A program made the translations under genes and the position numbers. A stretch of DNA of 64,000 bases from a virus, in IMG/VR virus record IMGVR_UViG_3300049830_000285, positions 64,001 through 128,000 of that record; one strand, written 5' to 3'. This document shows positions 6,462 through 46,400 of the stretch, one piece after another (position 1 is the first letter of the stretch; each line of letters opens with the position of its first letter). The notes under the pieces are model-generated. The model had not been told where the DNA came from. It searched no databases and saw nothing but the letters and a program-made list of their open reading frames with translations.

Positions 6462-7975
6462 TATTTTACCAACCAGGAATCAACAAGTTGTTTAGTCGAT
6501 TCAGAATAATAGTGATATGATTGAAACTTGTACAAATCCAACGACTCAATATATAGCGTCTGCCTATCAACACCGTCACCGTATACATCCCCAAAATATA
6601 CAAAATTGATATTATCGGAGATATCAAAGTAAGCTGAATCGGTCATCCTAGAATACATTTTTTCGCTTAATATTGCTTGCATTTTATTGCAATTTTTAAG
6701 TTGCAAAATATAAGGTCTCATTTCTTGGATTGCTTTTTTGGAGAATAATCCCATGTTAAGCCATCCTTCTTTAAACACGGATACGTAATTGGCTTTATGA
6801 CCAAATGCTGCAATTTTGGTCATAAAATTTTGACCAACTTTTGCCGTATCGTGCATTACGAACCATCTATCTCCCCCAAATCCCTTTTCAGCAATATCAA
6901 TTAATGCATTGTGGTCATAAGAGTTGTGTTGCACGTAGCTATAAAGAATGCCATTTTTGCGCTCTAAATATTCTTTTGGCGAACCGCCAACAACAACTAG
7001 TATTCTTTCTTTTTGAACTGCGGCTTCTTCTAGGCTTTTCAGCAATACGGGAAGTGTTTTTTGAACAGTAGAAACGTGTGATGAAATGGCTATATTTATT
7101 TCATCGTTATCCGAAATAAATAGACTACCAAGGGGAAATCCCATATCAAAATTGCTCACATCATCGTCACAATTATATTGTTTGTGATGTGATTCTATTT
7201 TACTATTTAGTGCTTGATAGCGGCTGAGTATAGCTGTTTTTTCTAGATAATCTAAGTATTTATCATCGGAAAACCATGAACATATAGAATTGCCGCATAT
7301 AGCGGAAAACACCGAGTCCATTTCTTTAAAATGATTTGCAAACGTGTCGCCGCGAGAAGCAAAAGCATATTTGTGCTTGGTTTCTTTCGAGGTGGGAATA
7401 TAGTATTCAAATTTCATATTTTCCACTCCCTTGGATTCAGCTTCATCAAGAAAACTTTCGTGAATTTGTTTTCTAAACTCCGGTTTTGCATCTTTTATCG
7501 TAAAGGTGTCGAAATATTCAGTATCCCATCGCCAAAGCAGATATGGCTTCAAATGATTGGTTACTTGATAAATATATGTAGTTCTGTCTGTATTAACAAC
7601 AGCGGGACAAATCAATTCATATTCTGGGTTGTTAATTACAAATTCTGATAAAGTTTCTATACATTTATTGTCAATGAAGCATATTTTATCTGCGAAATAT
7701 AAGCATAAATCTTGATTGGTGTGTTTTGTTTTTCTCAGAAAATCAGTAACAGATTGGTTGAAACTTTTATTTACGTTTAGCTGAGATATTGTGATTTTGT
7801 CACCATATTCTATAGCAACAGTTTGTAGGTAGCCCTTAGTATACGTGTCATCATGCCGCATAAGTAAGATAAGAGAATCTACACTCTTTTGAGCCAATAT
7901 TTGTGGAATGACTATTTTGGCATATTTGTGGTTGGATATAGCCAAATAAACAACTATTTTACAATCTCTTACCAT
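6461..7975 (-). CDS. Putative two-domain GT-A glycosyltransferase
   Basis: LYFADKICFID and C-terminal ILVVVGGS..HNSYDHNAL..WFVMHDTAKVG resemble GT2-type folds; coupled to the GT cluster. Start set at ATG 7975 (track start 7981 is TTG). Confidence 0.5.
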   Translation of the reverse strand: MVRDCKIVVYLAISNHKYAKIVIPQILAQKSVDSLILLMRHDDTYTKGYLQTVAIEYGDKITISQLNVNKSFNQSVTDFLRKTKHTNQDLCLYFADKICFIDNKCIETLSEFVINNPEYELICPAVVNTDRTTYIYQVTNHLKPYLLWRWDTEYFDTFTIKDAKPEFRKQIHESFLDEAESKGVENMKFEYYIPTSKETKHKYAFASRGDTFANHFKEMDSVFSAICGNSICSWFSDDKYLDYLEKTAILSRYQALNSKIESHHKQYNCDDDVSNFDMGFPLGSLFISDNDEINIAISSHVSTVQKTLPVLLKSLEEAAVQKERILVVVGGSPKEYLERKNGILYSYVQHNSYDHNALIDIAEKGFGGDRWFVMHDTAKVGQNFMTKIAAFGHKANYVSVFKEGWLNMGLFSKKAIQEMRPYILQLKNCNKMQAILSEKMYSRMTDSAYFDISDNINFVYFGDVYGDGVDRQTLYIESLDLYKFQSYHYYSESTKQLVDSWLVK

Positions 7976-15010: not shown

Positions 15011-16333
15011 ATGCAAGATAATATTAATGCTTTTCATAAAGAGGCTTTTGCTACACCGCAGGGTTTTGAAGCCGATGTGGAAAATTCATATGATGAAGCT
15101 CCATATGAAAAAGGGCTACAAACACAGGGTATGGTTGCAGCTAAATACACATCTGGTGACACGAGATATCAAGCTGAACAGCCGTTAATTCAAAGTCATT
15201 TAACTACATTGCCTTCCAAAGTATCTAAGCGATATTCTCCTCAGAATGATGAACAAAACACAGGGATGCCACTTCCACCAGAACCAACTTTTATGAAAGA
15301 TAGTGGTCGTCCTGAAAGAATTACATCGGTGAGGGGATTAATTAACAGAGAGAATATACCTGTTAGTGAAAAAAGGAAATCTTCACCATTAGCGGGAGTT
15401 GATTTTGCTAGAACTCACTCGGAAGCTGCTGCTTTGTTGGAGAGATTGGGGAAAAAGGTATCTTTCGAAGCTCATCATAGCGCGTTAGTTCAAGAGGCTT
15501 CGCAAAAATCATTACAAACATCTGTGAACAATGATATTGAACGCATTACGGTTGATTTACGTAAAGCTAAAGCTGAAATTGCAGACCTTGGAAGTAAAAT
15601 TGTATTATCTTCTGTTCCAGAAAAGAATTATGATAATCTTAATTTAGTTGCCGTTGGTCAAGAAGCTTTTGCATTAGATAGTCAATTGCGCACTGCTAAA
15701 TCAGCAAAGACTTTTGTCGCAACACGTAATGTTCGACCAAGTGATGCCATATCAGCGAATGAACTATTTGCGCAAGAACAAGCTGAATATGAAGAAATTT
15801 TATCTCAATCAACCGAGGCATCAAATCGCGCTCAGGCACTTGCAACACAACGTAGCGCAAATTTAGTGACACTCATCGAAGATAAGTTGGCAAAAGCCAA
15901 AGAAGAGTCTGATGAAATTTTAGATGCCGAAGATGCCACAAAAGTAATTCGCAGAGTAATGGACGATTATGTTCAAATGCGTAGTAATAACTCCAAAGAA
16001 CAACATGTTCAGATGCGAAATGTTGAAACCAAGGTAAAGAAAATTATGCAAGCCGAACTACCAGAAGAAATAGAATCAAAGGTTGACGCAGTAAACGAAA
16101 TTAAAGAGATTATTCACGAAGTTGTGAAATCACACCCAAACCTAGTTCAAAGAAACTCGGGAAGTAATGATATGGAATTCTCCTTGGCGGCGAGAGATAC
16201 ATATTTGAGAGTTCAAATAGAACAAGAGCTTCGAGAGAAATTCGAATTAAGATTAGTGGAAAATAATAAATTGATGGAGAAAAAGAATCTAGTTGTTTTT
16301 GAAGAAATGATAGACAGATTCCTTAACCCATAA
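15011..16333 (+). CDS. Coiled-coil hypothetical protein
   Basis: E/K/A-rich heptad-like C-terminal half; stop overlaps next start (TAATG). Start may be GTG 15002. Confidence 0.65.
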   Translation: MQDNINAFHKEAFATPQGFEADVENSYDEAPYEKGLQTQGMVAAKYTSGDTRYQAEQPLIQSHLTTLPSKVSKRYSPQNDEQNTGMPLPPEPTFMKDSGRPERITSVRGLINRENIPVSEKRKSSPLAGVDFARTHSEAAALLERLGKKVSFEAHHSALVQEASQKSLQTSVNNDIERITVDLRKAKAEIADLGSKIVLSSVPEKNYDNLNLVAVGQEAFALDSQLRTAKSAKTFVATRNVRPSDAISANELFAQEQAEYEEILSQSTEASNRAQALATQRSANLVTLIEDKLAKAKEESDEILDAEDATKVIRRVMDDYVQMRSNNSKEQHVQMRNVETKVKKIMQAELPEEIESKVDAVNEIKEIIHEVVKSHPNLVQRNSGSNDMEFSLAARDTYLRVQIEQELREKFELRLVENNKLMEKKNLVVFEEMIDRFLNP

Positions 16334-19300
16334 TGCCAGATAGCTATTCTAATCCATCATATAAGCCGCCAACAAGACCCTATAAATGGGTACCAAACAC
16401 GATACCGAATGGTGGAGACACACCTATTGGTTTCTATCCTCCGCAAATAGTTCGCGGGGCATTCAGAAACGACATCACTATTCAAGAGGGATTTACAGGT
16501 AGTACCGTCACCGTCACTGCAACTGGAACAATGATAAGTTCCAAGGGCTCTGAAAACAACCCAATATTAGCAGTTCATCGTCCAATGGTTGACCCCGATA
16601 ACGACCGAGGCGTACCTCCTTCTGAGTTATTTGACATAAGTGGAAATTTCAAATGGCAAGTGGAATTATCACAAGCGACCCGAATATCGTCAATAACTAT
16701 AGAATATGCATTAGTTGTAGATGTTAATGACCCTGCACTTTTAGCTTTATTAGACCCAGGTGATGCCGCAGCTTTAGCATTGTATTTGCAACACCCAACT
16801 GGTGAACCACCAAGCATTGACTGGAGCAAATATAAATTTGCAAAAATCACTTTAGATGATAAAGAGTATCCAGCTAACGGAACAGATGGCAAACCAAAAG
16901 AGTTAGCTGTTACGGGTGTTACAAAGACTGTTAAATTACACACAGTGAAGTTTGTTGATTCATTTGTGGTAAGTGGATTTCCGATAACTAAAAGAATTGC
17001 TATTTCTAATAGGTCTGGTTTAGACACGCTTGAATTAATCTTGTCTAAAGTTTATATTTTTGATGCCGCAAGAGTCAATCTACATGATAATCAGCTACCA
17101 AGCGCCTTGATGGAATACGCATATCCAACTCGTTTTTCTTTTACACCATCTCCAAGTATGAACGCACAGCGTTTACCATTTCCCTCTGATGCTGATAATC
17201 CAAATTTTCATTTTAAAATATACTCCCCGGAGGAATTAATAGCCACTAAGTATGGTATGGCTCATTCTATAAATCTGAGATTTTTAGTATTTTCTATGCC
17301 AATATTAGGAATAGACCCAACTGGTGTAAACAATTTGTATTTCGCTATTTTTATTGGGCCAGCTCCTGGTAGGAGAACTGTCAAAACAGCCCTAAGTGGT
17401 GAGTTAGCACAATCACATATTGCAAATGCAAATAAAAATCGAGTGGTCGTGGCTGATAGCTTTACAATAGAAAAAGATACAAAGACCCTTCGATTAGAAA
17501 AAGTTGCCTCAGCAGCAGCTATTTCTCCACCAGCAAATAATGCAAACTGGATAAGAATAGATAATTCTACATACAATGTAGTCGGAAATAATACTTTTGG
17601 AGATGAGGGTTCTTATGTTAGTGAATATTTGTTTTTAGATAATTCAACTTCTGTAAACAATTGGTATAGAACAGTTCAATCGCTTGGCAGTGGCGCAGAA
17701 AAGATATCTGCCCCATTTCAAAATAAAACATATAGTGAACATATAGTTTACAAAGCTTTATCATCCGCTACAACATCCACCAAGAAAGATAGTGTTGTGC
17801 GCAGAATACCGATAATGTCTGATTTTATTGGTGGCTCGCCATTGAATGCTGAAAGACCAATATCAACGTTTGTTATGGATGGATTTAATGCTCTAGTGAA
17901 TCCTATACGTATTCGAAAAGGCTCATTCAAGTTAGCTATTAGAGCCAAGGTAGAAGACCCGAGCTTTTTATTAAACACTCATTTATATGCGCGTTTTTGG
18001 TTTGTTCCAGATGGTTCTGACACCGATGTGAATAATCTCTATCATTGGCGAGATTCAACAGAATTTCATTTTGAAACTTCTGCCACAGGTACAAAAGTGG
18101 TACAGGGAGCGCCGCGAAGTATGCAAGATTTAATTGTGTCACCCCCAATACCAAATAGCCTCACTTATCTAGAGATGGTTCGCTATAATGATGTAGAAGT
18201 GGATTTTCCAGAGAAGGGGCATTCCGCGCCATTTTCCGGTGCAAAGCTGATGGTGGCTTTATATGCTGTGGGTTATCCATCGGCTGATGGTACAGCACAA
18301 AATATCACAAAAAATACACCAAATTTACCAAAAATAACTATTGAACTTGATTCTCAGTATGGCACTTTTGAAACTCCAATACAATATGTTGAATCTAATG
18401 TGTTGTTTGCTCAGCGAGCGAGTAGATATAACTCGTCACAATTTATTGCAGTTGATGCACCGCAGATTGTAACCAAGGGTAAAATCGGTGGTGGCGAACT
18501 TGATTCTGGCGCTTATCCCAAATATGATTCTAAATTTAAATCCAATGATAGCGAACCATTCAATGGATTGCTGAAAATGAATAAATCGGATTCTGGCACA
18601 TTAGCTAAATTCTGTATTCCTATCACTGCCGTACCTGGGGAAAAGGATGAGCAAACATCAGTTTATGCAGATTTTGCGACAGCAGATAAATCACTGGATT
18701 CCGGTCGAGTGTTAGATGGGGATTGGAAAGTTTCATTTACGGTGAATAGAGGTATAGACACAACATTAGTAGCTATAGATTATCGCATTGAAATGTTCTT
18801 GGTGAGTGGCGATGGCAAGGTGACAGAGCGAATCTTCAGGTCTTCAACTGTTAATGGTGTGAAGATTTCTGGCACGGGTGATATTTCTTACACTGCGTCA
18901 ATTAAAATTCCAATGATTATCAGTGGCTCGGGTACACAATTGGTTATGCGATTAATTGGCTATCCTTACTCAAGAAGTGGAAATGCCGTGGATGTTGGTT
19001 CTATTCAAAATCAACTGGGCTCCACTCCTTTTGGAATCAGAATTGATTCTCTTCAAATAGTAAGCCATACTTTGTCGCGTTTGTCAATATCTCAAGTGGC
19101 ATCGTTTCTTGGTAGCCCAGCTTTTAATGAAAATCTACAAGTGGTGCCGAATCAATCTATTGGTGAAACTTCCGATTTTTGGTTTATTGCTTCGGATTTC
19201 TTAACACATGTATTTGTCGTTGACGCAAGTGTTGGTATTGATATTACTGGCTCATTATATAGTCCAGCTTGGTTTATTAACATGCCAAAAGACATGGAGA

Positions 19301-20595
19301 TACGAGCGCGGGGGCAGGGATTTTTAGACCAAGACGTTTGGAGTAGAACAGTTGTAGCTGATGGCACATCTGCTGGCGAGGGTGCAACTTCAGCGGTAGA
19401 AGATAAGCATTCAAAAACGGTACATGTTGCCCATGAAGACGTGGACACGGTTGGTGGTCAATCTATTTCTATGATGTCTGATTCTCCGGTTATTAAACAT
19501 AAAGTCTTTGATTCTCCATATCGAAAATCATTATTAGATGATAACGTTGCTGGTCGAAATGCTGGGGGTATTTCCGTTCTGGGTAACACTGCTCCTAATT
19601 TGCAATTTATCAATATGGGCAGCTTCACTAACGACAATCCCGCTGTACTTGGGCTTATATCACAGCACGAGGGCAACGATTATGCGTCAGCGCAAGCTAG
19701 TATGAATACATCTCTAGGTGGCTTTGGTACATGGTTTGGTTCTAATCGTGACATGGCTGCAAATGATTTTGCAACAGTTAAAAAATTCGCAGATGGATTT
19801 TTGTCTCCAGTAATGGCACAATCATCTGTTTCTTCTTTAGTATATGTCGCTGGTTGGTGCGAACCCGGCGCGATTCTCTTAAAAGAAGCTAGTATGTGGG
19901 ACAGTAACACAAACACTGCTTCTGGAAATATCTTCTTGGTTGACGGATTAACTAACAATCCTATCCCTGACAGCTCACCAATAACTCAACCATCGTTCAT
20001 TTCTGGTCTCAAAGCTGTTCAAACATTTCCAGGCATAATAATTGATGCGCATAACACTGTGACTGTAGCTTACACATTGGAGGGTAGAACAGGAGAATTA
20101 TATGCTCGTTCATTAATTGGTGGACAGGGGATGAGCAATCCGTATGTTATTGCTACATTCAGAAGTCCAGGTCACTTAACCTCTGATGTCAATATCTTTG
20201 CGCCAACAATGAGCTGGCATGAATCAACTCAAAGTTATTATGTAGCTATGTGGTGTGGCGGCAAGATATTTTTGACGACATTCTGCGGCTTAAGAACATC
20301 GCATGGCGTGTTAATGAATCCGTTACAATTAGTAGCCGGGGATAAGGATTTCACTAGCGGGAAAAACTCAGCCAATCCAGTCTTTCAGGCATTAGTACAA
20401 TCTGGCGGATTGATTAACAATCAACTTGGAACTGCTGAAAGTGATATTCCACAACAAAGAGTTGGCTTGTATGTAAGTGATAAATGGCCTTTCCAGGGTA
20501 ATGCTTTCGTATATTACAAAGATAGTAACAATAAATTGATGATGCGCCAGGTTCGAATTGGTGGAATCACTGGTGCGCAAAAAGAAATCAGTTGA
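16333..20595 (+). CDS. Large beta-rich virion structural protein (tail/baseplate region)
   Basis: 1420 aa, S/T/G/N/P-rich beta-sandwich-like segments and a propeller-like C-terminus. Confidence 0.6.
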   Translation: MPDSYSNPSYKPPTRPYKWVPNTIPNGGDTPIGFYPPQIVRGAFRNDITIQEGFTGSTVTVTATGTMISSKGSENNPILAVHRPMVDPDNDRGVPPSELFDISGNFKWQVELSQATRISSITIEYALVVDVNDPALLALLDPGDAAALALYLQHPTGEPPSIDWSKYKFAKITLDDKEYPANGTDGKPKELAVTGVTKTVKLHTVKFVDSFVVSGFPITKRIAISNRSGLDTLELILSKVYIFDAARVNLHDNQLPSALMEYAYPTRFSFTPSPSMNAQRLPFPSDADNPNFHFKIYSPEELIATKYGMAHSINLRFLVFSMPILGIDPTGVNNLYFAIFIGPAPGRRTVKTALSGELAQSHIANANKNRVVVADSFTIEKDTKTLRLEKVASAAAISPPANNANWIRIDNSTYNVVGNNTFGDEGSYVSEYLFLDNSTSVNNWYRTVQSLGSGAEKISAPFQNKTYSEHIVYKALSSATTSTKKDSVVRRIPIMSDFIGGSPLNAERPISTFVMDGFNALVNPIRIRKGSFKLAIRAKVEDPSFLLNTHLYARFWFVPDGSDTDVNNLYHWRDSTEFHFETSATGTKVVQGAPRSMQDLIVSPPIPNSLTYLEMVRYNDVEVDFPEKGHSAPFSGAKLMVALYAVGYPSADGTAQNITKNTPNLPKITIELDSQYGTFETPIQYVESNVLFAQRASRYNSSQFIAVDAPQIVTKGKIGGGELDSGAYPKYDSKFKSNDSEPFNGLLKMNKSDSGTLAKFCIPITAVPGEKDEQTSVYADFATADKSLDSGRVLDGDWKVSFTVNRGIDTTLVAIDYRIEMFLVSGDGKVTERIFRSSTVNGVKISGTGDISYTASIKIPMIISGSGTQLVMRLIGYPYSRSGNAVDVGSIQNQLGSTPFGIRIDSLQIVSHTLSRLSISQVASFLGSPAFNENLQVVPNQSIGETSDFWFIASDFLTHVFVVDASVGIDITGSLYSPAWFINMPKDMEIRARGQGFLDQDVWSRTVVADGTSAGEGATSAVEDKHSKTVHVAHEDVDTVGGQSISMMSDSPVIKHKVFDSPYRKSLLDDNVAGRNAGGISVLGNTAPNLQFINMGSFTNDNPAVLGLISQHEGNDYASAQASMNTSLGGFGTWFGSNRDMAANDFATVKKFADGFLSPVMAQSSVSSLVYVAGWCEPGAILLKEASMWDSNTNTASGNIFLVDGLTNNPIPDSSPITQPSFISGLKAVQTFPGIIIDAHNTVTVAYTLEGRTGELYARSLIGGQGMSNPYVIATFRSPGHLTSDVNIFAPTMSWHESTQSYYVAMWCGGKIFLTTFCGLRTSHGVLMNPLQLVAGDKDFTSGKNSANPVFQALVQSGGLINNQLGTAESDIPQQRVGLYVSDKWPFQGNAFVYYKDSNNKLMMRQVRIGGITGAQKEIS

Positions 20596-20610
20596 TGTAC
20601 AATATGTAGC

Positions 20611-20961
20611 ATGAACACCAATATTAAATCAACTCCAACAGAACCTGTAAATTTTCGCATCAATACTGAAATGGTGGTTAATTTAAAAAGACTCGCCAGA
20701 CATGTATCTTATCATCTTGATGATGATTATACTTATGTGGACATCATTAGATGTTTGCTGGCAGAACATTTTCCAGTTCCAGAGACAGACTTAATTGCAG
20801 ATACCCAATCAAAACAGGTACAAGATATTTGTTCACGTATTACCAGACAGGCTGCTTTAGCGGGCGTACCGTACATTTCCTCAACCTTTACATCCAGTAC
20901 ATCTATAGAAGGAACTACAATTTCTGGCTTAAAACAAAACAACCTAGATGAGAGCGAATAG
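20611..20961 (+). CDS. Putative ribbon-helix-helix DNA-binding protein
   Basis: EPVNFRINTEMVVNLKRLA..YVDIIRCLL: alternating strand plus two helices; TACAAT 7 nt upstream of ATG. Confidence 0.45.
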   Translation: MNTNIKSTPTEPVNFRINTEMVVNLKRLARHVSYHLDDDYTYVDIIRCLLAEHFPVPETDLIADTQSKQVQDICSRITRQAALAGVPYISSTFTSSTSIEGTTISGLKQNNLDESE

Positions 20962-21013
20962 GATTCGTTCAAATTAATGTTGAACAAATATTAAGCGTAG
21001 GTTGTAAATCATC

Positions 21014-23815
21014 ATGTGGTATGGAAAAATGTTGAAAGCAAATAAAAATGGAATCTCACGAGAGGAATTGAACATCCCTCTGAGCGGCGCTTTGCAACAA
21101 ATTCTACAAACATTGGTACAAAATGGCTGGAGAGGCTTGGTCGTTGGCGGGGCTGTTCGAGACGCTGTAACAGGTCATGTTCCCAAGGATATCGACGTTG
21201 AAGTTTACGGGCCTGATTTCAAACAGCTTGCGGCAGTTCTCAAGCAATATGGTCATGTACTTGGCGGCGCAGCGGATGAATCAGTAGACGATAATTCATA
21301 TCAAGAATTTGTGCCCATTCCTTATTTTCCAGAAAAGTTCAGGGATTCACAACCATCTCAAATGAGTTCAGATGGCCCAATTCCCAATCAAGGGTGGATG
21401 TACAATCTAAATCCAAAGCCTCAAAAATCTCCTGTTATTGGAAAGGCGTTCGGTGTTATCAAATTTAGAGATGCCGAAGGGAACGATTATGACTTCTCCT
21501 TACCTCGTCGTGACAGTAAGACGGGTGAGGGTCACACTGGATTTGATATTCAAGTAGACCCAAATATGTCTCCACTTGAGGCTGCATCACGGCGTGATTT
21601 TACGTTTAATTGTTTTTCATCTGAAACAAGAATGTTGACAAAAGCTGGAATTTTTAGTTTTTCAGAGTTGGTAGAACAGTATGTTGATGTTTTAAATCAA
21701 AACGGTGAATGGGTCAATGCTTTAATTAGAGCATGCGGACAACAGCCGTTAATGAAGTTAATTTTACAAAGAAATGGAGTTAAAAAAGAAATATTTGTAA
21801 CACCAAATCACAGATGGTTTGTGCGCAACAAACATACTGGAAATTACACATCTGTACGCACCACTGAAGAATTAAAAAAATGTCATTTTATATCATCTGT
21901 TTTTCCTAAAAATATTTCAAAAGATGTTATCCCAAATAATGATGCAATATGTCGCGGGTTTGTGTTTGGCGATGGGTCTTTAACATATGGTAGTAGAAAC
22001 ATTGCTAGTGTTGCAAATTTTTGTGGAGAGAAAGACAAAAATTTATTACCTTGTTTTTCAAAACTCCCTGTAGGTTGTTCTCCAAGAGAATACCCTGGTG
22101 TCATAAAAATTCAAGGATTGCCATTTGAGTGGAAAGCCCATGTTCCTGATTTAGAACACGAAGATACATCGTATTTATATGGATGGTTGGCGGGATATTT
22201 TGCCGCAGACGGCTGTGTTGATAAAAAAGGGTGCCCGACATTAAGTTCTGCATCGTTAGAAAACATTGAATATGTAAAAATGTTATGTCAAAAACTAGGA
22301 ATAGGAACTTTACACACAAGTGTTTCTCACGGAGGCGCTGGGGCATACAAACCAGACTCTGTGTGTTATATACTTGCTTTTGTAAGGTCAACACTATGCC
22401 CTGAGTTTTTTGTAATTCCTGAACACAGAAAAAGATTTGTGTCTCATCAATACAATAGAGAAAGAACTGGATGGAGCGTTGTTTCAGTTGAAGAAACTGA
22501 CCGTTACGAAGAAGTTTTTTGCGCAGAAGTGCCAATTGACCATGCATTTGTTTTAGAGCACAATGTATTAACTTCGAATTCACTTGCATACGACCCGTTG
22601 ACAAACGAACTTCATGATTACTTTGGCGGTAAAAAAGATTTGGATAATCGAATTTTGCGTGCTACAGATATGGAAAAATTTGGGGAAGACCCACTGCGCG
22701 TTTTGCGCGGTATGCAATTTGCTGCCAGAATGGGATTGACAGTAGACCCGCAAACTGCAAAGTTGGCGCAAAATCTTGCAAATGAAATTCCTAATCTTTA
22801 TAAGTCTCCAGAGAATCCAAATGGCATCTCTCGCGAACGTGTAACTGAAGAATTTATGAAGCTTGCTACCAAGGGTAAATTCCCAGGTAGTGCAATTCAG
22901 TACCTTCAAGATACTGGTTGGGTAAAATACTTCCCGCAAGTTCAGGCTATCATTGATGTACCGCAGGATGAAGAGTGGCACCCAGAGGGAGCTGTACATA
23001 TTCACACAGCACACGTCATGAACGCTGCTGCTGAAATCGCTGATAGGCGCGGTTTGAAAGGTGATGACAGGGCTGTTGCAATCTTTGCAGCGCTCGGGCA
23101 CGACTTCGCTAAAGCAACGACAACAGAGCAGCGCGAAAAGGGCGGACGAATGCGATGGACGGCACATGGGCACGAAGAGGCTGGCGGGCCGGTGGTAAAA
23201 GAGTTTTTACAGAGCATCGGAGTTAAAAATGACATTATTAATCGTGTTGTTCCGCTTGTCCGTAAGCATTTGAATCACATTCAATACAAAGACGAGAACA
23301 TTTCCAAGGGAACTGTTCGTGGTTTGTCGCATGATATTTACCCTGCGACTATAGAAGACTTGGTTGACTTGATTGAAGCAGACCATTCTGGACGCCCGCC
23401 TTTGGAGAAGATGCTACCAGAGCAAGCTCAATGGTTATTGGATGCGGCTAAGAAAGATAATGTTCACAATCAGAAGCCACAACAGGTTATCACTGGAAAG
23501 CATGTATTGCCATGGTTCCAGGGTAAAGTTGGCCCGCACGTCGGAAAAGCAGTTAAGGAAGCTTATGAAGCCTACTTAAAGGGCAGATACACCACCCCAG
23601 AAGAGGCAGAAGTATGGTTACGCAACTATATGAAGGCAAATGCTCAATTACTGCGTGGTGATGATGTTTTGCCATATTTTGGCGGTAAAGGCGGCGCTCA
23701 AGTCGGACAAATATTAGATAAAGCCTGGGACGCTCAATCTGCTGGTGAATATACTGACCAAGATGCAGCGAGAGCTTGGTTGGAAAACTATATGAAAACT
23801 AACCCATCCGCTTAA
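21014..23815 (+). CDS. cca: Class II tRNA nucleotidyltransferase (CCA-adding enzyme) with HD domain, intein-containing
   Basis: VGGAVRD..PKDIDVE, FSLPRRDSKTG, RRDFTFN|SLAYD, EDPLRVLRGMQFAAR, SRERVTEEF, WHPEG..HT, GHDFAK. Confidence 0.9.
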   Translation: MWYGKMLKANKNGISREELNIPLSGALQQILQTLVQNGWRGLVVGGAVRDAVTGHVPKDIDVEVYGPDFKQLAAVLKQYGHVLGGAADESVDDNSYQEFVPIPYFPEKFRDSQPSQMSSDGPIPNQGWMYNLNPKPQKSPVIGKAFGVIKFRDAEGNDYDFSLPRRDSKTGEGHTGFDIQVDPNMSPLEAASRRDFTFNCFSSETRMLTKAGIFSFSELVEQYVDVLNQNGEWVNALIRACGQQPLMKLILQRNGVKKEIFVTPNHRWFVRNKHTGNYTSVRTTEELKKCHFISSVFPKNISKDVIPNNDAICRGFVFGDGSLTYGSRNIASVANFCGEKDKNLLPCFSKLPVGCSPREYPGVIKIQGLPFEWKAHVPDLEHEDTSYLYGWLAGYFAADGCVDKKGCPTLSSASLENIEYVKMLCQKLGIGTLHTSVSHGGAGAYKPDSVCYILAFVRSTLCPEFFVIPEHRKRFVSHQYNRERTGWSVVSVEETDRYEEVFCAEVPIDHAFVLEHNVLTSNSLAYDPLTNELHDYFGGKKDLDNRILRATDMEKFGEDPLRVLRGMQFAARMGLTVDPQTAKLAQNLANEIPNLYKSPENPNGISRERVTEEFMKLATKGKFPGSAIQYLQDTGWVKYFPQVQAIIDVPQDEEWHPEGAVHIHTAHVMNAAAEIADRRGLKGDDRAVAIFAALGHDFAKATTTEQREKGGRMRWTAHGHEEAGGPVVKEFLQSIGVKNDIINRVVPLVRKHLNHIQYKDENISKGTVRGLSHDIYPATIEDLVDLIEADHSGRPPLEKMLPEQAQWLLDAAKKDNVHNQKPQQVITGKHVLPWFQGKVGPHVGKAVKEAYEAYLKGRYTTPEEAEVWLRNYMKANAQLLRGDDVLPYFGGKGGAQVGQILDKAWDAQSAGEYTDQDAARAWLENYMKTNPSA
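21611..22579 (+). mobile_element. Intein (323 aa) with LAGLIDADG homing endonuclease
   Basis: Starts CFSSETRMLT, has VTPNHRW, RGFVFGDGS and LAGYFAADGCV, ends VFCAEV..AFVLEHNVLTSN with Ser +1; removing it restores RRDFTFN-SLAYDP. Confidence 0.92.
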
Positions 23816-24173
23816 ATTTGGATGAGGTATTTGCTTGTAAATTCAAGTTATTGACCTGGCCTGACATAATGGATTGATACATTTGTCGGGCAGCGTCATC
23901 ATTTAAGCCAGACGGGTCGATTCCAGCACCTCTTAATGCGGAGTGTATGTTCATCATTTCCATTTGGTCATTCATTTGATTACCCATTTGTTGATTTCCC
24001 ATCATACCATTCATGAAATCTGGCATTTGTGATTCATCACCGCCAGAATTAAAATCTTGAATAGGCCCGTTTATGTTTGATAGACGCACCATTACTTGCG
24101 TTATTACCTCTGCCTCTTTGTGCATCCCTACTTCATCAAGTTGATTGGCGATGATTTCAAGTTTATCTAGCAT
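23799..24173 (-). CDS. Hypothetical Met/Gln/Asn-rich protein with N-terminal helical leader
   Basis: MLDKLEIIANQLDEVGMHKEAEVITQVMVRLS; AAGGGA SD before ATG 24173; 3' end overlaps the cca 3' end by 17 nt. Confidence 0.55.
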   Translation of the reverse strand: MLDKLEIIANQLDEVGMHKEAEVITQVMVRLSNINGPIQDFNSGGDESQMPDFMNGMMGNQQMGNQMNDQMEMMNIHSALRGAGIDPSGLNDDAARQMYQSIMSGQVNNLNLQANTSSKFKRMG

Positions 24174-24279
24174 TGTGTCCCTTGTATCTTTTTTCGAAAT
24201 AGAGTTTGCCACATCCTTGTATAAATGAAAATACAGGTTATTGAATAGTAAACACCAAAATTTCAACTAAGACTATCAC

Positions 24280-27200
24280 ATGAACACAGAACCCAAAGAA
24301 TATAAAGTAAAGTGTCTTTTAGGCGCGGTATATGCCCCGGATATTGGCTTTATATCAGAAATGGCAGCCAGGTCTAGAGTTTCGAAAGACCCTGCAAATC
24401 TTATTCCGCAAACATATTATTTGCGAAGCAACTATGCTGGTGAAGCTCCTAAAATGCCATCGGTATCTCAGCGCCTTAAATCTGTACTACAAAGTTCAGG
24501 CGGATTGATTCCCGAACCCAATCCATACATTGGCGCACCAATGTCTACTTTTGTTTATGGCGGATTAGTGCCAGAAGAGAATCATCCACAATTGGATAAT
24601 ATTCTCGGCCCGTCTAAGGCAAAAGCTTTTGAATTTGAGAAAGGTGTGTTTTATCAATATAATCCAGTTTTTGATGGCGGAGAAGCAGACCTTGGAGGAA
24701 CCGGACGGGACGGCAGCGATGCCCCTGAATTTCAAAACCCATCTAATTTTGGGCCTACACCAAATTTCGCTTTTGAGGGTGCGCAATATCCTTCGATTCC
24801 ATCTATGAAATCTGCGCCATTTAATGTAGAACAGCAGCGGTCTACATATAATATTTGGCAACATGTTAATCTTGATGAAAAGAAAAATCCCGTAAAATAT
24901 AGAAAACATTTAGGCCCGGTTTATCCCGATGGATATTCTGGAGGAAGAATGCGACAAAATGTGTCTGTTGATGGTGATGCATATGTAGTTGTCACATCAC
25001 AAAATACTGTCACGCAACTAGAGAGGTTGTTTCCTATTGCCGCTGATTTAGCATACGAAAATGACACCAAGATTTATTATCCCAACGCTGGTAATATCGC
25101 AATCGCTCCAAAAACCATCAAAGCGCGACCATCTGATAATTGCGGTTTTCAGGTTCACCTTAAACACTCTGAAGTAGCAAAGATGAGTAATCCACAAAGT
25201 GGAAAAGTGGACGGCGGTGTGCGCATTGAATTCGGTGCATCTGAATACCCAAAGAGTGGAAACTTTATTCAAAATTTTCAGATTAACTTAATTGCTGGTC
25301 AAACACCCGAGCTACATTATTATCACCCGTTGAAACAAACATGGGAGCAATTTCCGTTGAACGGGGCACCGTTTGGTTCTGGAGATTTCAAATTATTTGT
25401 CCATTATGCTGGCCCAAACATGTTGATTGGGTTTGATGAAAACGTGGAAAGTTGGAATGCATTTGTCCCGCTTGATAATGAAGATGACAACAAGCAACAA
25501 ATTTATGCTCGTACACCTGTTAATTCTAAAATCAGCATGACGTTTAATAACATCACGGCAGCTTTCAAATACGGGCCGATTGCATTTAACAACTATCATC
25601 CAGAAAATGTATCCTCCGTTCGTGAGACAGACCCAGACGTGGGCGAAATTGACCACATGGGGCAGTTACAAACGAGTTTTAGTGCCCAATCAAAGATTGA
25701 CCCAGGGCGTCAATCAACAGACCGTAGCGAGGCTTTAAATGCCACTAATATCAATTCTCAATTTCAAGCACAGCGATTATATGGGATAAATGCTGGTAAT
25801 CCCGATGACCCAGAGCGTATTGAGAGCCGAGAATCATCTGCGTCATGTTATGCAGATTGGCGTAGACCATCTGCGGAGATGATTTATCGTGAAATTAGTT
25901 CAACAACTGATGCGAGTACGGGTGAAAAATTTTCCAAGGGTCGTGTAATTTTTGACACCACCATCGAGGGCCCGCAATTTCAATTTGTTAGAGCTGGAAA
26001 TAATCAATCAGCCGATTCTTCGAGCCAGAGTAGCTTAAAGAAATATTTTGGTCAATCATTAGATGGCAAAGACAAACCAACATCTTCTGCTTTAGCTGAT
26101 ATTATTGTTCAAATGCCCTGGGGAGATATTTCTGATTATGTCGAAAGCTGGACAGTGAGTGTCTCCTATCCGCTTGGAAGTGGAGGTAGTAATAGTAATC
26201 ACTCATATATGCAAAAACAAGCAAGTGTTGTGTTGAGAAATCTAAAAATGACTACACTTGGTCGTCAAATATTGGATTCTATTGAAAAAAATAATTTGAC
26301 CATTGAGCTTGGCGCAGGCCCAAATACTGCGGAAACTTTCTTCCAGGGTGTTATCACTGAAAGCGAAACTGAGAATACACCAAACGGTAGTATCACAACA
26401 GTAAAATGTACAGATATCGCCACTCAAATCTTATCTGATGTACCGTGTTCAACAGTTTTGTTTTTTCAAAGTATGAGATATGGAAGAATTATTGAATATG
26501 CTGTTGCGATGTCTGGTTTATATGATTGGTACGACCAAACAAATGACCCCAAATTGGCAGATGCTTTGAATTTAAGATTAGGTTATAGTCCAGTGGAAGG
26601 TAGCTTAGCAACTCAAGTTCTATCGGCTTCTCCACAGAAAAAAGTCATTGATGTTTTAAAACCTGCACTTTCGCTGGTTATTGATTCTGACGCTCTGCCT
26701 GTTTTTTATTGGGACGAATCTACACAACGACTGAAACTCGACAGAAGACAATCTCCGCTATTGTTGGATGAATTAACCTTTGCTGGATATCTTGACCCTG
26801 ATATTAGTGCTTCATATTTACCAAATAGTTTGGTGGAAGGTCAACATGGCGTATTGCACAATTCTGGTTGGAGAACAACAACAAATAATAAGCAGTTACA
26901 TGCTGGAATAGTTTTATATGGACAAAATTGGTACGGAAGAGTAATAACATACACAAAAATTAACGAAGATGAATTCGCTAATCGCTTCACCAAAGAAGGG
27001 TTGGCGAATCTTATTAATTCTGTTGGCGAAGCTGCTGATTTTAAGGATTTAACTGGAGGGTATATTGGTTATAGAAAGATTTTTATTGACCAAGCACAAT
27101 CCAATCTATTTCCCGACTTGTTGTCTTTAAGAAATTACGGTTCACGTCTAAAATCATTTATGATATTGCCATATCAGCGAATTGCATTTAAATGTTATGT

Positions 27201-27405
27201 TACACGACCATTAAAGCACGCTGGGCAATTTCAAATCAAAACATTTTTAAATCCACCTGGATTATCTGCTGATGATGATAGTGAAAACGCAACAACTGGC
27301 AACTATTTATACTCTGAGGTAACGTACAGTTTTACGAAAAGCAACAACTTTATCTTAGCCGATGTTAAAGGGGAACAGCTTCCACCTCTCGCATATAATA
27401 ACTAA
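24280..27405 (+). CDS. Putative baseplate hub / tail-associated protein
   Basis: C-terminal half ISDYVESWTVSV..ASVVLRN..IELGAG..FFQGVITE..TVKCTD resembles the hub/gpD-type fold; position in tail block. Confidence 0.5.
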   Translation: MNTEPKEYKVKCLLGAVYAPDIGFISEMAARSRVSKDPANLIPQTYYLRSNYAGEAPKMPSVSQRLKSVLQSSGGLIPEPNPYIGAPMSTFVYGGLVPEENHPQLDNILGPSKAKAFEFEKGVFYQYNPVFDGGEADLGGTGRDGSDAPEFQNPSNFGPTPNFAFEGAQYPSIPSMKSAPFNVEQQRSTYNIWQHVNLDEKKNPVKYRKHLGPVYPDGYSGGRMRQNVSVDGDAYVVVTSQNTVTQLERLFPIAADLAYENDTKIYYPNAGNIAIAPKTIKARPSDNCGFQVHLKHSEVAKMSNPQSGKVDGGVRIEFGASEYPKSGNFIQNFQINLIAGQTPELHYYHPLKQTWEQFPLNGAPFGSGDFKLFVHYAGPNMLIGFDENVESWNAFVPLDNEDDNKQQIYARTPVNSKISMTFNNITAAFKYGPIAFNNYHPENVSSVRETDPDVGEIDHMGQLQTSFSAQSKIDPGRQSTDRSEALNATNINSQFQAQRLYGINAGNPDDPERIESRESSASCYADWRRPSAEMIYREISSTTDASTGEKFSKGRVIFDTTIEGPQFQFVRAGNNQSADSSSQSSLKKYFGQSLDGKDKPTSSALADIIVQMPWGDISDYVESWTVSVSYPLGSGGSNSNHSYMQKQASVVLRNLKMTTLGRQILDSIEKNNLTIELGAGPNTAETFFQGVITESETENTPNGSITTVKCTDIATQILSDVPCSTVLFFQSMRYGRIIEYAVAMSGLYDWYDQTNDPKLADALNLRLGYSPVEGSLATQVLSASPQKKVIDVLKPALSLVIDSDALPVFYWDESTQRLKLDRRQSPLLLDELTFAGYLDPDISASYLPNSLVEGQHGVLHNSGWRTTTNNKQLHAGIVLYGQNWYGRVITYTKINEDEFANRFTKEGLANLINSVGEAADFKDLTGGYIGYRKIFIDQAQSNLFPDLLSLRNYGSRLKSFMILPYQRIAFKCYVTRPLKHAGQFQIKTFLNPPGLSADDDSENATTGNYLYSEVTYSFTKSNNFILADVKGEQLPPLAYNN

Positions 27406-40442: not shown

Positions 40443-43400
40443 ATGGCCGCACCAACTTTTACATCAGCACTGACGAGCCAAGACGGATTAACAGTTGAAA
40501 TCTTACTTGGTGGCTCTGGGGTTACATCAATCATCCCTGCCACGGGAGCTATTACGGGCTGGACATTAGTCCAAGACCCCGCTGGTTCGGCAACAACTAT
40601 TCCAATTACGACAGCTTATCGAAAGGGCTCGTCTGGTGCTGATGCACTTACTGTTGTTCTTACACTTCAAACTAGATTAACCGCCTTAAGTGTATTGAAA
40701 TTATCCTATTCATCTGGAACAGGAAATATCACCGACCAAACTGCTGCCTTCCCAATGGCAACTTATGCTGGCAGTAACAGCAACTGCGTTAATTATACTG
40801 GGCGTCCCGTATTTTTATCTGCTGCCACCAGTTTAGATGGTCAATTTATTGACATTGTTTTTAATGATTATGATAGCACTTCTATTTTGCCATCTAATCA
40901 GGGAATTCCTGGATTCATAGTCAAGGTTGGTGGTAGTGGTGGAACCTCCCAAACCTTTCCAAACCCAATTAGAAAGGGCGATTCTGGCTCAGACCTTAAA
41001 ACTGTTCGAATCACATTAACGACACCGCTGCTTTATACTGATTCAAACATAGTTGTTAAATACACACCAGATGTTTCTGTATTTATTACTGATAATAGTG
41101 CCCCTCCTGTTCCGACTCTGGCATTTGATTATCAATCAGTTACACAAAATACTATTGAAAGAATAGCCCCAGCATTTGCAAGTGCTCACACATCAACAGA
41201 TGGTTATAGTGTCTATGTAGTATTTACAGAAACGGGCCCGCCGTCTCCGGGTAAAATTTTACCAGAAAGCATTAATATCGCTGGATTTACGATAACAGAA
41301 GATGTCGGCGCTGGTTATGTTACTAGAAATCAAGTTAGTGCCATTCGAAGTACCGATACTATGGATGCAAATTATTTGCGAACCATAATTATCACTCTGA
41401 ACACGCCTTTAACATACAATAAAGTATATAAAATTGCATATGCTAATGTAACTGGCAAACCAAAAGTAACTGATGGAGCCACAATACCTAATAATCTTTT
41501 GGCATTCACTTCTTCACCAGTAACCAACACCACCACATATGAGCGCATTCTTCCAGTTTTTCTTAGCGCCACTACTAGTAGCACAAATCTTGTTTTAGTG
41601 AATTTTACAGAGGCTAATTCTGTTCCATTAGCGCCAACATCACCAAGTGGCTTTATTTTACGAGCAAATGGCGCAAATATTCCATTTAGTATAACTAGAA
41701 CAAGCAACACTCAATACACACTAACGCGAACTGATTATAAAACCTGGGGTGCAGAAGATTATATCACCGTTGAATATGTTCAACCAACTTCTAATTTTGT
41801 AACTGATGCAGCTCCAGCTAGTAATAAATTAGCTAGTTTCGGGCCAAATGTTGTAACAAACGCTATTGTAAATAATACATCAGCACCATTGTTTGTTCGT
41901 GCTGCTACAAATGTTACCGGGAATAGTATTGTAGTTTATATTCGCGAAAATCACAGCTTTCCACCATATATTAACCCATCAACTGGAATTACAGGGTTTT
42001 ATGTTACTGTAAATGGAGTTCCCAGAGACATTATTTCCGCAGTTCGTGGAAATACTATCACAACATTTACAGATGTAAACCGCACCATCAATTTAGCTTT
42101 GGCTTATCCAGTTAGGGCAAAAGATTTGATTAAACTAAATTATTACAATGGTAATGTGGTTGATGTAGATACAGATTCTTCTCCTAATAATTTAGGAAAT
42201 TTCTCATCATTGGTGGAAAACACGACTGCGGCTAAAATCTTTGGAACCAATGTTGCGTTTGCTACTTTTGACTCTGATGAAATATTTAGAACTCAACAAT
42301 TCGATATTCTTCGTTCTTATGGAATACAGTGGATAAGAGATTATCAAGTAGACGGACAGGTGGACACTAATCCGGGTACCCAAACTGTGAATCGTGCGCA
42401 TGCTGTTGTTGTTGCTCGTCAGGCATTAGATTTAGATATCACACCATCTATTGTTTTGGCTGATTCCAATTACGGAATCGAGAATTCAGATGGAGTTAAC
42501 TTTACAGCCGCTAATTTTAATGCTTTCAAACATCGTTTTGCTGACCCAGCAGAGAAATCTGATGTACGACGAGCAATGTTGTGCGCCGCTATTGCTGGCA
42601 ACCTAACAACAGTCTTAACCTGGGTTTTAAATGACGTAAGTGCATTAAATGAACTATTCCCATATGGAACAGTTGGAGAAGAATTTAATGGGCCTAGATT
42701 ATATGAATGGAGATATTTAGCACCAAATGGTGGCTGTTCATGGGATGCATTTGAGCGCGTTTTATCCGGGACACGCGGAGCAGTTGTGTTTAATGTCTCT
42801 GGAAATGTAACGTCTGGAAGTGCATTACCAACAAGCACGGATTTTGCAACATTTTGCGCAGCATTGCCAGTACCTATTAACTTTACTGCTGTTTCAGAAA
42901 GTACATTGAGGTCGCGTTTCGAAAGCTTCAGAGCTTCGTTAGCTACTCGATGGACTAAGGGCGGAACATTGGGTAAAAGCGTCTTAGTGGAAAATGACGA
43001 TAGTAGCACCCTGGAAATTGGAGATTCTTCTTCTCGTGTTGTAACAGCTTTCAATTACAAACGATATGATTCTATTAGCGGTGACCCAGTAGTGAATAGG
43101 GGAGCTAAACAAATAGCTTTGGCACAAACTTTATATAATGCGAATTATCACACGGTGTTATTAGACGAATGGACTGAAAGAACTATAGATATTACTTTTA
43201 CTCTTGGTTCTGGAAAAACCATGCCTTTATGGACTGCTGGAACAGCAGCAGGTTCTTATTATGCTTTATTGGCAAATGATGTTACAAATTACGGTAATCT
43301 TTCTGCGTCACATCTTTGTATAGACCAAACAGACTGTGACGCGGCTATGCATTCAATTTCCCAATTGTTTGAACTTACGCAAGCTTCAAATGATTTATCT

Positions 43401-46400
43401 AGCATTCCTTTTAATCCTTTACACTGGATACTTAGTGGCTCATCGAGTATGGATAGCAGAACTGGATATTTGTTAGAAAGAAGACTTGGCTGGCCATTAG
43501 CTTCTACCATTTTAGATACCACTCCACCTATTGGAAGCTTGGTAATTAATGAAAGTCCAGGAAGTGGCGGTATTAAGGTTCATCATTTCGCAGCATATGG
43601 TTCAACAACATTGAGCAACGGCGGCGGTGGACAGGATGATTTAAATAATAAATATGAAGCCACTCAATTGCTTTCTAGCGGTGCATTTGATATTACTGCC
43701 ATCAGCTTAAATTTCAAGAAAGGCGGAACAATCACCAATCAAAGCGAGAGAATAACGGTTAGTTTATACTCAGACAGCGGCGATAAGCCTTTGCAACAGC
43801 TTGCTACTTCAAGTGACTTTGTTTCTTATGGAGATTTAACAACATCATTCCAAGCATTTGAATTCAAGTTGGATTACAGATTGGAAGACAATACAAAATA
43901 TTGGATTGTGGTTTTCCGCAGTGCTGCTCCATTGGGTACGAGTGCATTTATATACATCTCAACAAAATCACCAGCGGCTGGAGAATATGCAATTTCCAGC
44001 GATGCAAGTTCGTGGACTTTGGAAACAGGCAAGAGTTTTCAATATTCCTTTACAGCCTCAGATGCATCAGCACAACCACAGTCAGCAATTAATGAGTTAC
44101 AAGATGCTCTTGAAATACCAATTTATGATACGGTTACTTTTGGTGGGTCAGATGATGAAACAATTTATGAATTAATAGGTGTTGGAGACAGGCGCTATAT
44201 CGTTATGAGAATTAATCAAGTAACAGAAAATAACGTGTTGGTATATCCAGCTATTAGTAGTGTGGAAGTCGGTCTTACAGCAGATAAGCCAAAAAGCTAC
44301 TTAATAGAAGCTAAGGTTAATCCAACAGATGCCTGGACTTCTTTGTTCACAATGATTGCCGACAATGAATCGCGAGAATACTTTAGATATACTTTTTCAT
44401 CTCCTGTGCGGTTATCTGATATTCGATTGAGCTACAGAGGCGATTTCTATACATCATCTAATGATGGAACCATTACAGTTTCTGGAACTGACCCTCTCAC
44501 ATCGGTTACTGCATTTCAGGCTTCACATTATACTGATTTCCACGACGCAATCAGCTTTCCAAATGCTGATTCAGATGGATGGGTTCCATTTACCGATGGT
44601 ATTTCATTGTTTGATTGGAAAATGATTAATGATTCAGAAACATGGTTGAAACAAGCGGGAAATTCGCTTGCCGGCCCGTTAAGTAATGCAACGATTTTTG
44701 GCGGATTTATTGTTGCACATGACCACACCACTTTGTACACATTCAGTGCATCGGGTACATTAACATCCAGAAAAACTATAACAAGTGGTCAGGAACCAAT
44801 TTTATCCATTGCTGTACATAAAAATGTGTTATATGTAGGCTTAGAAAATGGACAATTGCTTTCTAGTTCTGATGCAAAAATATATTCAACGGTGCCTATT
44901 TCAACTATCACAGCTCCGATTCGAGCATTGGTTTCGTATAGAAGTAAGTTATGGATTGGAACTGGTAGAGACACTGATAATTTATCAAAAATTTATACCT
45001 GGGATTCAACATCGCTCATCTTAATTCGAACACTGGTACAGCCTCAAATAAATGCTTTTGCAGTGGCACACGGTAAATTGTTTGTTGGTGCTGGTAGTGA
45101 TAGTGGAGTTCAAGCAGCTTCAGTGTATTACTATGATGGTCAACAATGGTCATTGACATTCTCAGCTCAATCGGTTGGTGTAGACGCCCTGACGTTCTCC
45201 ACGGCAGATTCAAGACTCTGGGCTGGTTTGGAGGGTGGCAGCGTTTATGCGCTGACTTTCAAAGAAACTGGAGATTTAGACACATGGAAGCAGGCTTATG
45301 ATGGAGATGCCACTCATTATATCTCCATTAGTGATGACCCCAATGGAGATTATGTTTGGCTTTGTTCAGATACGGGATTGGTTGTTTATAACAAATCAAC
45401 GTTAACATTTGCATCTGTTCCATTGCCAACTCCAGAGTCTGGTTTACAATCTGTGTGGACAAACAGCGATGCTGCAAACTACCTAACTATTGGTTCTGGA
45501 ACTCGTAAAATTTATTACAATGATGACCAAATTAACTGGGCGGATTTTAGTGCTAGCCGACCATCTAATGTTAATGCCACTTATTTCAATACTTCGTGGG
45601 AAGAATATATTACTCCGTCTCAAACAGCTAATTGGAAATTCTTTAGCAACACAACACTCGGTGTGTCAAGGCTATACATTAATGATGAGTTGATTATTGA
45701 TGAAGTAACGACTCCTGCTGTAACGACTGGTTGGGCTCAATTGACTGAAGGTAAGTATTACAAATTCAGATATGAATATTTCAAAGATGGGTCATCTGGC
45801 GGCAGCGCAGTTTTGAATTGGCAGGCTAATGGTACTGGTGGAATCACAAATGTTTCAAAGCCTTACTTTGGTAAACCAAATGAAATCACAAAAATTTCAT
45901 ATATCGGTGCAGCACCATATGCAATGAGTAGCTCTGGCAATATTTACTTATTGGATACAAGTGCTATTGCAACCAAAAAGCGAACAGCATATGTTCGCTT
46001 TAAGGATGAAGCTGGCAATACTACAACGCTACCAGGCCTTTCCGATACTATTATTCAAGACTCACCGACCAGAAACGGGGTGAGGATATCAGACGGAAAT
46101 ATTTATCAAATCAACACGAATGATAAGCGTGTTTTGGCAACATTTGCATCACCGATATCTGGTGCTCTCAAATCACCGAAACGAAAGACGCGAGAAGATG
46201 GTTCGTATGAATCAGAACCGTTCTATTCTCCGACATTAACTCGATGGGATAAAATTTCTTTCTTGGCAGTTATGCCAGCGGGAACTTATCAAGAAGAGGG
46301 ATTGGATATCGGCGTAGAAGTAACGCTACAAGTGCGCTCGGGTAAAACACGTGAAGAATGTCTAGCAGCAACTTGGGGCAACGATATGACATACAGCACG

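Follow-up and report, generated by a model that had tools for sequence, protein, structure and literature searches.

Does the segment that interrupts the active-site motif of a phage tRNA nucleotidyltransferase gene excise itself from the protein, and does it still move between phages? The gene (cca) lies in a 64,000-nucleotide stretch of viral DNA, here called the window, which comprises positions 64,001–128,000 of IMG/VR record IMGVR_UViG_3300049830_000285. A first-pass annotation made from the letters alone had proposed a LAGLIDADG intein at 21611–22579, inside the RRD motif of a class II enzyme, with Cys1, a TSN end, Ser+1 and two LAGLIDADG blocks between RRDFTFN and SLAYD. Coordinates, residues, predicted fold and homologues agree with this proposal, and the listed features are present as described. 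As argued below, the element is very probably a functional, still mobile homing intein in a tRNA 3′-end (CCA) adding/repair enzyme of a jumbo phage.

The host gene was identified from its domains and motifs. The Pfam PolyA_pol head domain (PF01743) was matched on either side of the insert, and HD and PolyA_pol_RNAbd matches were found in the C-terminal part, the HD phosphohydrolase domain with PF01966 at 4.9e-9; E. coli Cca likewise has a C-terminal HD domain. The head domain contains the signatures expected of this enzyme class: GGxVRD...DxD as motif A, RRD as motif B and EDxxR as motif D. RRD, as motif B of class II nucleotidyltransferases, belongs to the active site. The top NCBIfam match of the extein was PRK10885 (multifunctional CCA addition/repair protein), at 135.5 bits against an equivalog cut-off of 451. 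By sequence, the extein is a class II tRNA nucleotidyltransferase, an assignment compatible with CCA-adding, A-adding, CC-adding or poly(A) specificity.

The insert consists of 969 nt, or 323 codons, in frame with both exteins (...RRDFTFN↓CFSSETRMLT...NVLTSN↓SLAYD; arrows mark the junctions; Table 1). Pfam LAGLIDADG_3 (PF14528) was matched above its cut-off on residues 191–246 (E 7.4e-10). The AlphaFold2 model, computed from an alignment of 47 rows, had a predicted local distance difference test (pLDDT) of 96.5 and a predicted template-modelling score (pTM) of 0.92. In Foldseek searches of the PDB, the top matches of this model were the TliVMA intein (7qsu, 3.5e-13), PI-PfuI (1dq3), PhoVMA and PI-SceI (1vde), with a probability of 1.00 to 7qsu, 1dq3, 1vde and 1ef0, and its nuclease part matched I-DmoI (4unb and others, E ~4e-6) and the nuclease domains of PI-SceI and PI-PfuI. 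Lys141 of the endonuclease domain is conserved. The insert is thus a genuine intein with the two domains of homing elements, predicted to splice and to cleave DNA.

Table 1. Positions of the precursor gene, its exteins and the landmarks of the intein in the window
Feature	Position	Strand	Description
Precursor gene	21014..23815	+	933 aa; class II tRNA nucleotidyltransferase (CCA-adding/repair type) by sequence, with one intein inside; from open reading frame list, Pfam and NCBIfam
N-extein	21014..21610	+	199 aa; motif A GGAVRD...DIDVE at 21146-21202; closes with motif B RRDFTFN at 21590-21610; aligned to empty alleles
Intein	21611..22579	+	323 aa; Hint splicing domain split by LAGLIDADG homing endonuclease domain
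Cys1, block A nucleophile	21611..21613	+	TGT codon; Cys in 137/139 family members
Block B	21782..21823	+	Thr64 (B:7), His67 (B:10), Trp69 (B:12, 21815-21817); Thr in 138/139, His in 139/139, Trp in 139/139
LAGLIDADG motif 1, AICRGFVFGDGSL	21944..21982	+	Residues 112-124; catalytic Asp121 (GFVFGD121G); Gly116, Gly120, Asp121 and Gly122 invariant in alignment; Asp in 137/139
LAGLIDADG motif 2, LYGWLAGYFAADGCVD	22175..22222	+	Residues 189-204; catalytic Asp200 (GYFAAD200G); Asp in 136/139; matches PI-PfuI motif 2
Block F	22511..22558	+	Cys304 at F:4 (22520-22522, TGC codon); Cys in 139/139; positions as defined in PMC2807308
Block G	22559..22582	+	Thr321 (G:5, 22571-22573), Ser322 penultimate, Asn323 (G:7, AAT 22577-22579), Ser+1 (TCA 22580-22582)
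C-extein	22580..23815	+	411 aa and stop; SLAYD (rest of motif B), motif D EDPLRVLR, HD domain ~22997-23290, C-terminal tail

The first-pass annotation had suggested comparing filled and empty cca alleles at RRDFT(I/F)N↓S, and both kinds were found. A search of 5.8 billion proteins yielded 1,312 CCA homologues, and the allele counts given here refer to the 120 that were listed. Seven of these clusters are filled at exactly RRDFTxN↓S (the window's own, P0005, P0006, P0016, P0019, P0023 and P0025); in 112 the site is empty, the +1 residue being Ala in 63, Ser in 48 and Thr in one. Intein-less homologues (P0008–P0010 and others) run unbroken across the site (RRDFTFNSLAFDP; consensus RRDFT(F/M/I)N(S/A)(L/M/I)A(Y/F)DP), and one of them, P0008, lines up without interruption there with E. 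coli poly(A) polymerase (3AQL) and also matches the Bacillus CCA enzyme (1MIV). The inteins at this site form a coherent group: all seven start with CF(A/S)x(E/D)T and end with (I/V)LTSN, followed by Ser in six cases and Cys in P0016; they are 49–77% identical to one another, and the catalytic residues are kept in all seven alleles.

The same contrast between filled and empty alleles was seen in genomic context. In related contigs the order of genes is conserved (a 1420-aa protein, a small open reading frame (ORF), cca, a small reverse ORF and a 1041-aa protein), and the syntenic cca gene contains the intein in L004 but lacks it in L002 and L003. The nearest empty relative of the window's extein, P0007, is 93% identical to it and has Met(-2)/Ala(+1) where the window has Phe(-2)/Ser(+1); similarly, the filled P0016 has Cys+1 and its empty sister P0029 has Ala+1. 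A back-translated DNA pattern of the filled junction recovered one other filled allele in IMG/VR (L007, on a 478,840-bp contig), two contigs in a metagenome collection, which from their size and length we judge to be those of P0006 and P0023, and no match among the 185,579 bacterial and archaeal species genomes of GTDB. L007 was found through this pattern alone, as a search of IMG/VR with the intein itself revealed no relatives. All filled alleles come from uncultured sequence, the majority from phage-like contigs that reach 479 kb, and none of the CCA-site filled proteins carries an intein annotation. Among sequenced phages, a megablast search of INPHARED with window positions 20000–25000 gave no match and hence no close relative there; tblastn with the C-extein detected 294 phage cca genes at 25–30% identity, none of which was matched by the intein.

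One filled allele has an unusual architecture. The 1401-aa metagenomic protein P0025 consists of a filled cca product joined to an N-terminal region of ~600 aa with a Phage_Mu_F (PF04233) match, and may be either a fusion or a run-through of gene calling.

The seven inteins at the CCA site grouped as a single clade (SH-aLRT support 94), with long internal branches, in a tree of 64 intein family members, suggesting that the site was colonised once and long ago. In an extein tree of 33 rows, the nearest neighbours of filled alleles are empty, with support for the pairs window–P0007, P0005–P0015, P0006–P0017 and P0016–P0029, and at least five gains or losses of the intein are required. The intein is compositionally foreign to its host gene: its GC content is 35.8%, and 22.9% at third codon positions (GC3), versus 44–46% and 35–40% GC3 in the exteins, and the same contrast is found in L004. 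Comparison of the window with L004 gave ratios of nonsynonymous to synonymous substitution (dN/dS) of 0.11 for the intein, 0.10 for the endonuclease domain, as low as for the splicing domain, and 0.02–0.09 for the extein. Together with the filled and empty syntenic alleles and the conserved nuclease residues, the sporadic distribution on the extein tree and the low endonuclease ratio indirectly favour the earlier suggestion that the endonuclease may drive homing.

The sequence of events that these data suggest is as follows. The gene would be translated as a 933-aa precursor with its head domain split within motif B (RRDFTFN↓S). Since 323 residues interrupt both this motif and the sheet of the head domain, such a precursor very probably lacks activity. 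The Hint domain would then excise the 323-aa intein and join Asn199 to Ser+1, restoring the ...TFN-SLAY... motif of the intein-less relatives. The residues expected to carry out splicing are Cys1, Thr64/His67, Cys304 (F:4), Asn323 and Ser+1; the reaction may begin with Cys1, as in class 1, or with Cys304, either by the class 3 route or through a relay from Cys1 to Cys304, and the sequence is compatible with each. Freed or still embedded, the two-motif LAGLIDADG enzyme would cut the empty cca genes of co-infecting related phages at RRDFTxN↓S, and repair of the break would copy the intein into the empty allele.

Several observations weigh against a functional, mobile intein. The curated intein profiles scored under their cut-offs (PF14890 Intein_splicing, 27.1 bits, E 4e-6, versus 35.8; TIGR01445, 15.7 versus 24.5); we attribute these weak scores to the divergence of this intein family from the seed alignments, and let fold and homologues decide. 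The splicing chemistry is not of the textbook kind. Position F:4 is usually Asp in class 1 inteins. Here the class 1 features Cys1, Thr64 and His67 are present, whereas Asp at F:4, which is replaced by Cys, and a penultimate His, both common but non-defining, are absent. Between the window and L004, the synonymous divergence (dS) of the intein is lower (1.4) than that of the exteins (2.4–3.0), which is only suggestive at saturated values above 1. A sign in favour of mobility lies next to the junction, where the first seven codons of the C-extein match the filled L004 at 86% and the otherwise closest empty L002 at 67%, and the next seven reverse the relation (48% to L004 versus 95% to L002); this tract fits a short co-conversion, possible at best from windows of only 21 nt. 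About half of the empty alleles have Ala+1, so that the intein could not splice there unless the +1 codon were co-converted, which would limit homing. Lastly, splicing, DNA cleavage and the inactivity of the precursor enter this account as predictions from sequence.

The missing penultimate His was clarified by the wider family. A phmmer search with the intein against 1.84 billion representative proteins (clusters at 50% identity) gave 1,753 matches at E<=1e-3 and 551 at E<=1e-30. In an alignment of 139 members, Cys1 is present in 137, Thr B:7 in 138, Asn G:7 in 137 and Thr G:5 in 127, and His B:10, Trp B:12 and Cys F:4 are present in all. The penultimate residue is Gly in 99, Ser in 16 and His in 12, and the +1 residue, among 136 members aligned from end to end, is Cys in 129 and Ser in six. 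The first-pass annotation was right that Ser stands in the place of His; as a peculiarity of this intein the point did not hold, since most of the family lacks the penultimate His and the TSN ending is a trait of the lineage. This His is often missing in phage inteins, where a Gly-to-His change even impaired splicing (PMC5050341). What the annotation had overlooked is a Trp-Cys-Thr (WCT) triplet, W69, C304 and T321, which stands alongside Cys1 here and in this large family as a whole.

The WCT triplet is otherwise associated with class 3 inteins, defined by Trp B:12, Cys F:4 and Thr G:5 together with the lack of an N-terminal nucleophile (PMC2807308). In 2009 the known inteins that had a WCT together with Ser1 or Cys1 numbered just three (PMC2807308), and the working definition of a later survey, no Cys at position 1 and Cys at F:4 (PMC7891396), excludes a Cys1 + WCT family by construction. 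Inteins of RtcB tRNA ligases and of the zinc ribbon of DnaG-type primases are among the closest non-CCA relatives. We tentatively raise the idea, doubtful as yet, of a very large and largely unrecognised intein lineage, hosted by the CCA enzyme, RtcB, primases and numerous further proteins, that has kept the class 1 Cys1 beside a complete WCT with invariant Cys F:4. Such a lineage would be relevant to the disputed origin of class 3 inteins, by divergence from class 1 or by convergence (PMC7664689), and its cysteine pair could put phage tRNA repair under redox control. With its natural Ser+1, the window intein would be a convenient member for testing how the hybrid family splices. One family protein, the 936-aa metagenomic P0122, consists almost entirely of two related family inteins in tandem, starting CGAAETRF and CFAGETEY, with a short extein rich in CxxC.

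Other accounts of the element differ either in how it splices or in whether it still functions. The one that deserves most attention alters the chemistry, not the identity, of the intein: by a class 3 route or a two-thiol relay, Cys304 would be the obligatory nucleophile, to which the N-extein is transferred as a thioester, at once or by way of Cys1, before it moves on to Ser+1. This is quite possible, if somewhat short of probable. It would explain why the triplet is complete and Cys F:4 invariant, and it suits Ser+1, found in nearly all class 3 inteins, and the dispensability of the penultimate His in the class 3 prototype (both PMC2807308); in solved class 3 structures, F:4 is located between the two splice junctions (PMC7891396). 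Set against this are the near-universal Cys1 and Thr B:7 and the invariant His B:10, as expected for a class 1 first step, the prevalence in the family of Cys+1, which is rare in class 3, and the finding that a WCT grafted onto a class 1 intein gave no class 3 splicing (PMC7664689). Both published definitions of class 3 require the absence of what is found here, an N-terminal nucleophile (PMC2807308) or N-terminal Cys (PMC7891396). Formal assignment of the window intein to class 3 was rejected because Cys1 is present in it and in nearly all of its relatives. Nor is sequence kinship to class 3 claimed: a profile search of PDB sequences with the intein returned only PI-PfuI (E 0.001) and no class 3 intein structure.

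The remaining accounts retain less of the element's activity or add to it. It is unlikely that the intein splices with an endonuclease that is inactive or lacks targets, and persists by vertical descent with occasional precise loss. The similar protein identity of intein (78%) and extein (71–80%) between the window and L004, the rarity of filled alleles and the Ala+1 of about half of the potential targets are in keeping with such a history; however, both catalytic Asp residues and Lys141 are retained, a dN/dS of 0.10 is not what a nuclease that has lost its activity should show, the nearest neighbour of each filled allele is empty, and the junction tract resembles that of another filled allele. 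Conditional splicing, gated for instance by a redox-sensitive disulfide at Cys1 or Cys304 so that phage tRNA 3′-end repair is switched on in suitable cell states, we consider quite unlikely. Under oxidative stress, a disulfide to the F:4 Cys reversibly stops the class 3 intein Msm DnaBi1 (PMC6195587), and the window intein, with 13 Cys among its 323 residues, has two catalytic-site Cys that the family keeps almost without exception; yet a selfish element accounts fully for the data, and the pair of Cys1 and Cys F:4 is found whatever the host (RtcB, primases and others), which makes it a feature of this line of inteins and not something adapted to cca. That the insert is a decayed, non-splicing remnant, with cca a pseudogene or working with the insert in place, is very improbable. 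The low profile scores and the lack of a penultimate His would be expected of a remnant, but the frame is open across 933 codons, the nucleophiles and assisting residues are intact and conserved at saturated dS, the model is confidently folded, and the extein is under strong purifying selection. An intron or decayed insert was rejected because of the open frame, the conserved catalytic residues and the dN/dS of the intein. A functional homing intein thus remains the reading that we favour.

Comparison with characterised systems places this intein among known types in build and apart from them in host and site. When 50,697 phage records were searched with the intein by tblastn, full-length matches at 23–29% identity were obtained to annotated inteins of ribonucleotide reductase (RNR), among them that of Thermobifida phage P318 (7e-17). 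The phage RNR inteins (Vibrio phage ICP1 NrdA, Thermobifida phage P318, Morganella phage MP1 and Staphylococcus Kayvirus-type) have the same Hint and double-motif LAGLIDADG build and likewise reside in nucleotide-handling enzymes of large lytic phages, but host protein and site differ, and the low identity indicates that they are not the same intein allele. Closer in sequence are the inteins of metagenomic RtcB proteins (P0125, P0126 and P0130), which are 44–47% identical to the window intein by BLASTP and form a neighbouring clade on the intein tree. They share Cys1, WCT and an LT(G/R)N ending, and their host is also a tRNA repair enzyme; unlike the window intein, they are inserted before CxHN(Y/F) of RtcB and are followed by Cys+1. 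RtcB has long been known as an intein host (PMC4760082).

The best structural matches, PI-SceI, PI-PfuI and the TliVMA/PhoVMA inteins (1vde, 1dq3, 7qsu, 7qst; E 3.5e-13 to 5e-10, template-modelling score 0.55–0.65 on the query), have the same arrangement of domains. They are only 12–19% identical to the window intein, are larger (361–454 aa), and contain an extra DNA-recognition region; at F:4 they carry Asp, and their penultimate residue is His. Class 3 inteins (mycobacteriophage Bethlehem DnaB, Msm/Mch DnaB1; PMC2807308, PMC6195587, PMC7664689) have in common with it Trp B:12, Cys F:4, Thr G:5, Ser+1 and a proposed phage origin, whereas they lack the N-terminal nucleophile and the window intein keeps Cys1 and Thr B:7. 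Inteins in a "nucleotidyltransferase" of mycobacteriophage cluster C1 (PMC5050341; bioRxiv 10.1101/2025.01.02.630785) are a different case despite the name, as their host falls under IPR018775 and not PF01743, and both site and intein lineage differ.

A full-text literature search, which did not extend to InBase, found no description of an intein in a CCA-adding enzyme or tRNA nucleotidyltransferase, and a survey of inteins in bacteria and archaea from 2016 names RtcB in its main text but says nothing of nucleotidyltransferases. The view that host and site are uncommon was thus upheld by the literature as well as by the scarcity of filled alleles. As far as this search shows, the host protein and insertion site are new for inteins; the two-domain LAGLIDADG type itself is known. 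The class II CCA-adding/repair enzyme is thereby added to the list of intein hosts, and RRDFTxN↓S in motif B to that of insertion sites. The location fits the rule that inteins occupy nucleotide-binding motifs, and extends it from DNA metabolism to tRNA 3′-end repair in huge phages. Related filled and empty alleles, Ala+1 alleles that should resist productive invasion, and the Cys+1 of P0016 together offer a compact system in which to study homing, co-conversion and target immunity, and the endonuclease is a candidate new rare-cutting enzyme that may be of use as a tool.

CCA-adding enzymes are already known among the RNA-repair genes of jumbo phages (PMC7824862). The source record of the window has 177,708 bp at an estimated completeness of 47%, figures that suggest a jumbo phage. 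It contains 22 tRNA genes, all outside the window, and no tRNA gene was found within the 64 kb of the window itself. The CCA end is encoded in 20 of the 22, and for one further tRNA (tRNA-Met) the next genomic base completes it. Because most of the phage tRNA genes encode CCA, the enzyme is more likely to serve in 3′-end repair than in de novo maturation. No other intein, and no RtcB, was found in the 177.7-kb record. One of the 22 tRNA genes, called by ARAGORN at 43328–43402 of the record and thus outside the window, has the anticodon CTA and would decode amber codons; the ORFs of the window are long under table 11, and stop-codon recoding is not evident there.

The cca gene is flanked by very large ORFs, at 16333–20595 (1420 aa) and 24280–27405 (1041 aa) of the window. 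Their order is kept in L002–L004, and their counterparts in these relatives have no Pfam hit on record. The tRNA-repair gene thus sits in a conserved block of large proteins of no assigned function, possibly virion proteins.

Outside motif B, the cca gene varies at two further places. The head domain of the N-extein contains a Pro/Gln-rich insertion of ~45 aa (window 21275–21427), between the GHVLGGAAD stretch and VIGKAFGVIKF; this loop is present in P0005, P0008 and P0022 and absent from P0006, P0007 and P0010. The HD domain of several homologues (P0006, P0007, P0011, P0013 and P0027) is interrupted in frame by a second insert of ~224 codons, between WHPEG and VH(I/T)HT, and P0006 holds both this insert and the motif-B intein. 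In L002, the closest empty-allele relative, the insert occupies 6868–7539. Its sense translation is rich in Ser, Thr and Ala, and the opposite strand contains a 209-aa ORF (7500..6871) with a Pfam HNH_3 match above cut-off (2.1e-7). It looks like a second mobile element of cca, with the endonuclease encoded antisense and the sense frame open. A different insert of ~150 aa is found at the same position, after WHPEG, in P0016 and P0022, and the place looks like an insertion hot spot.

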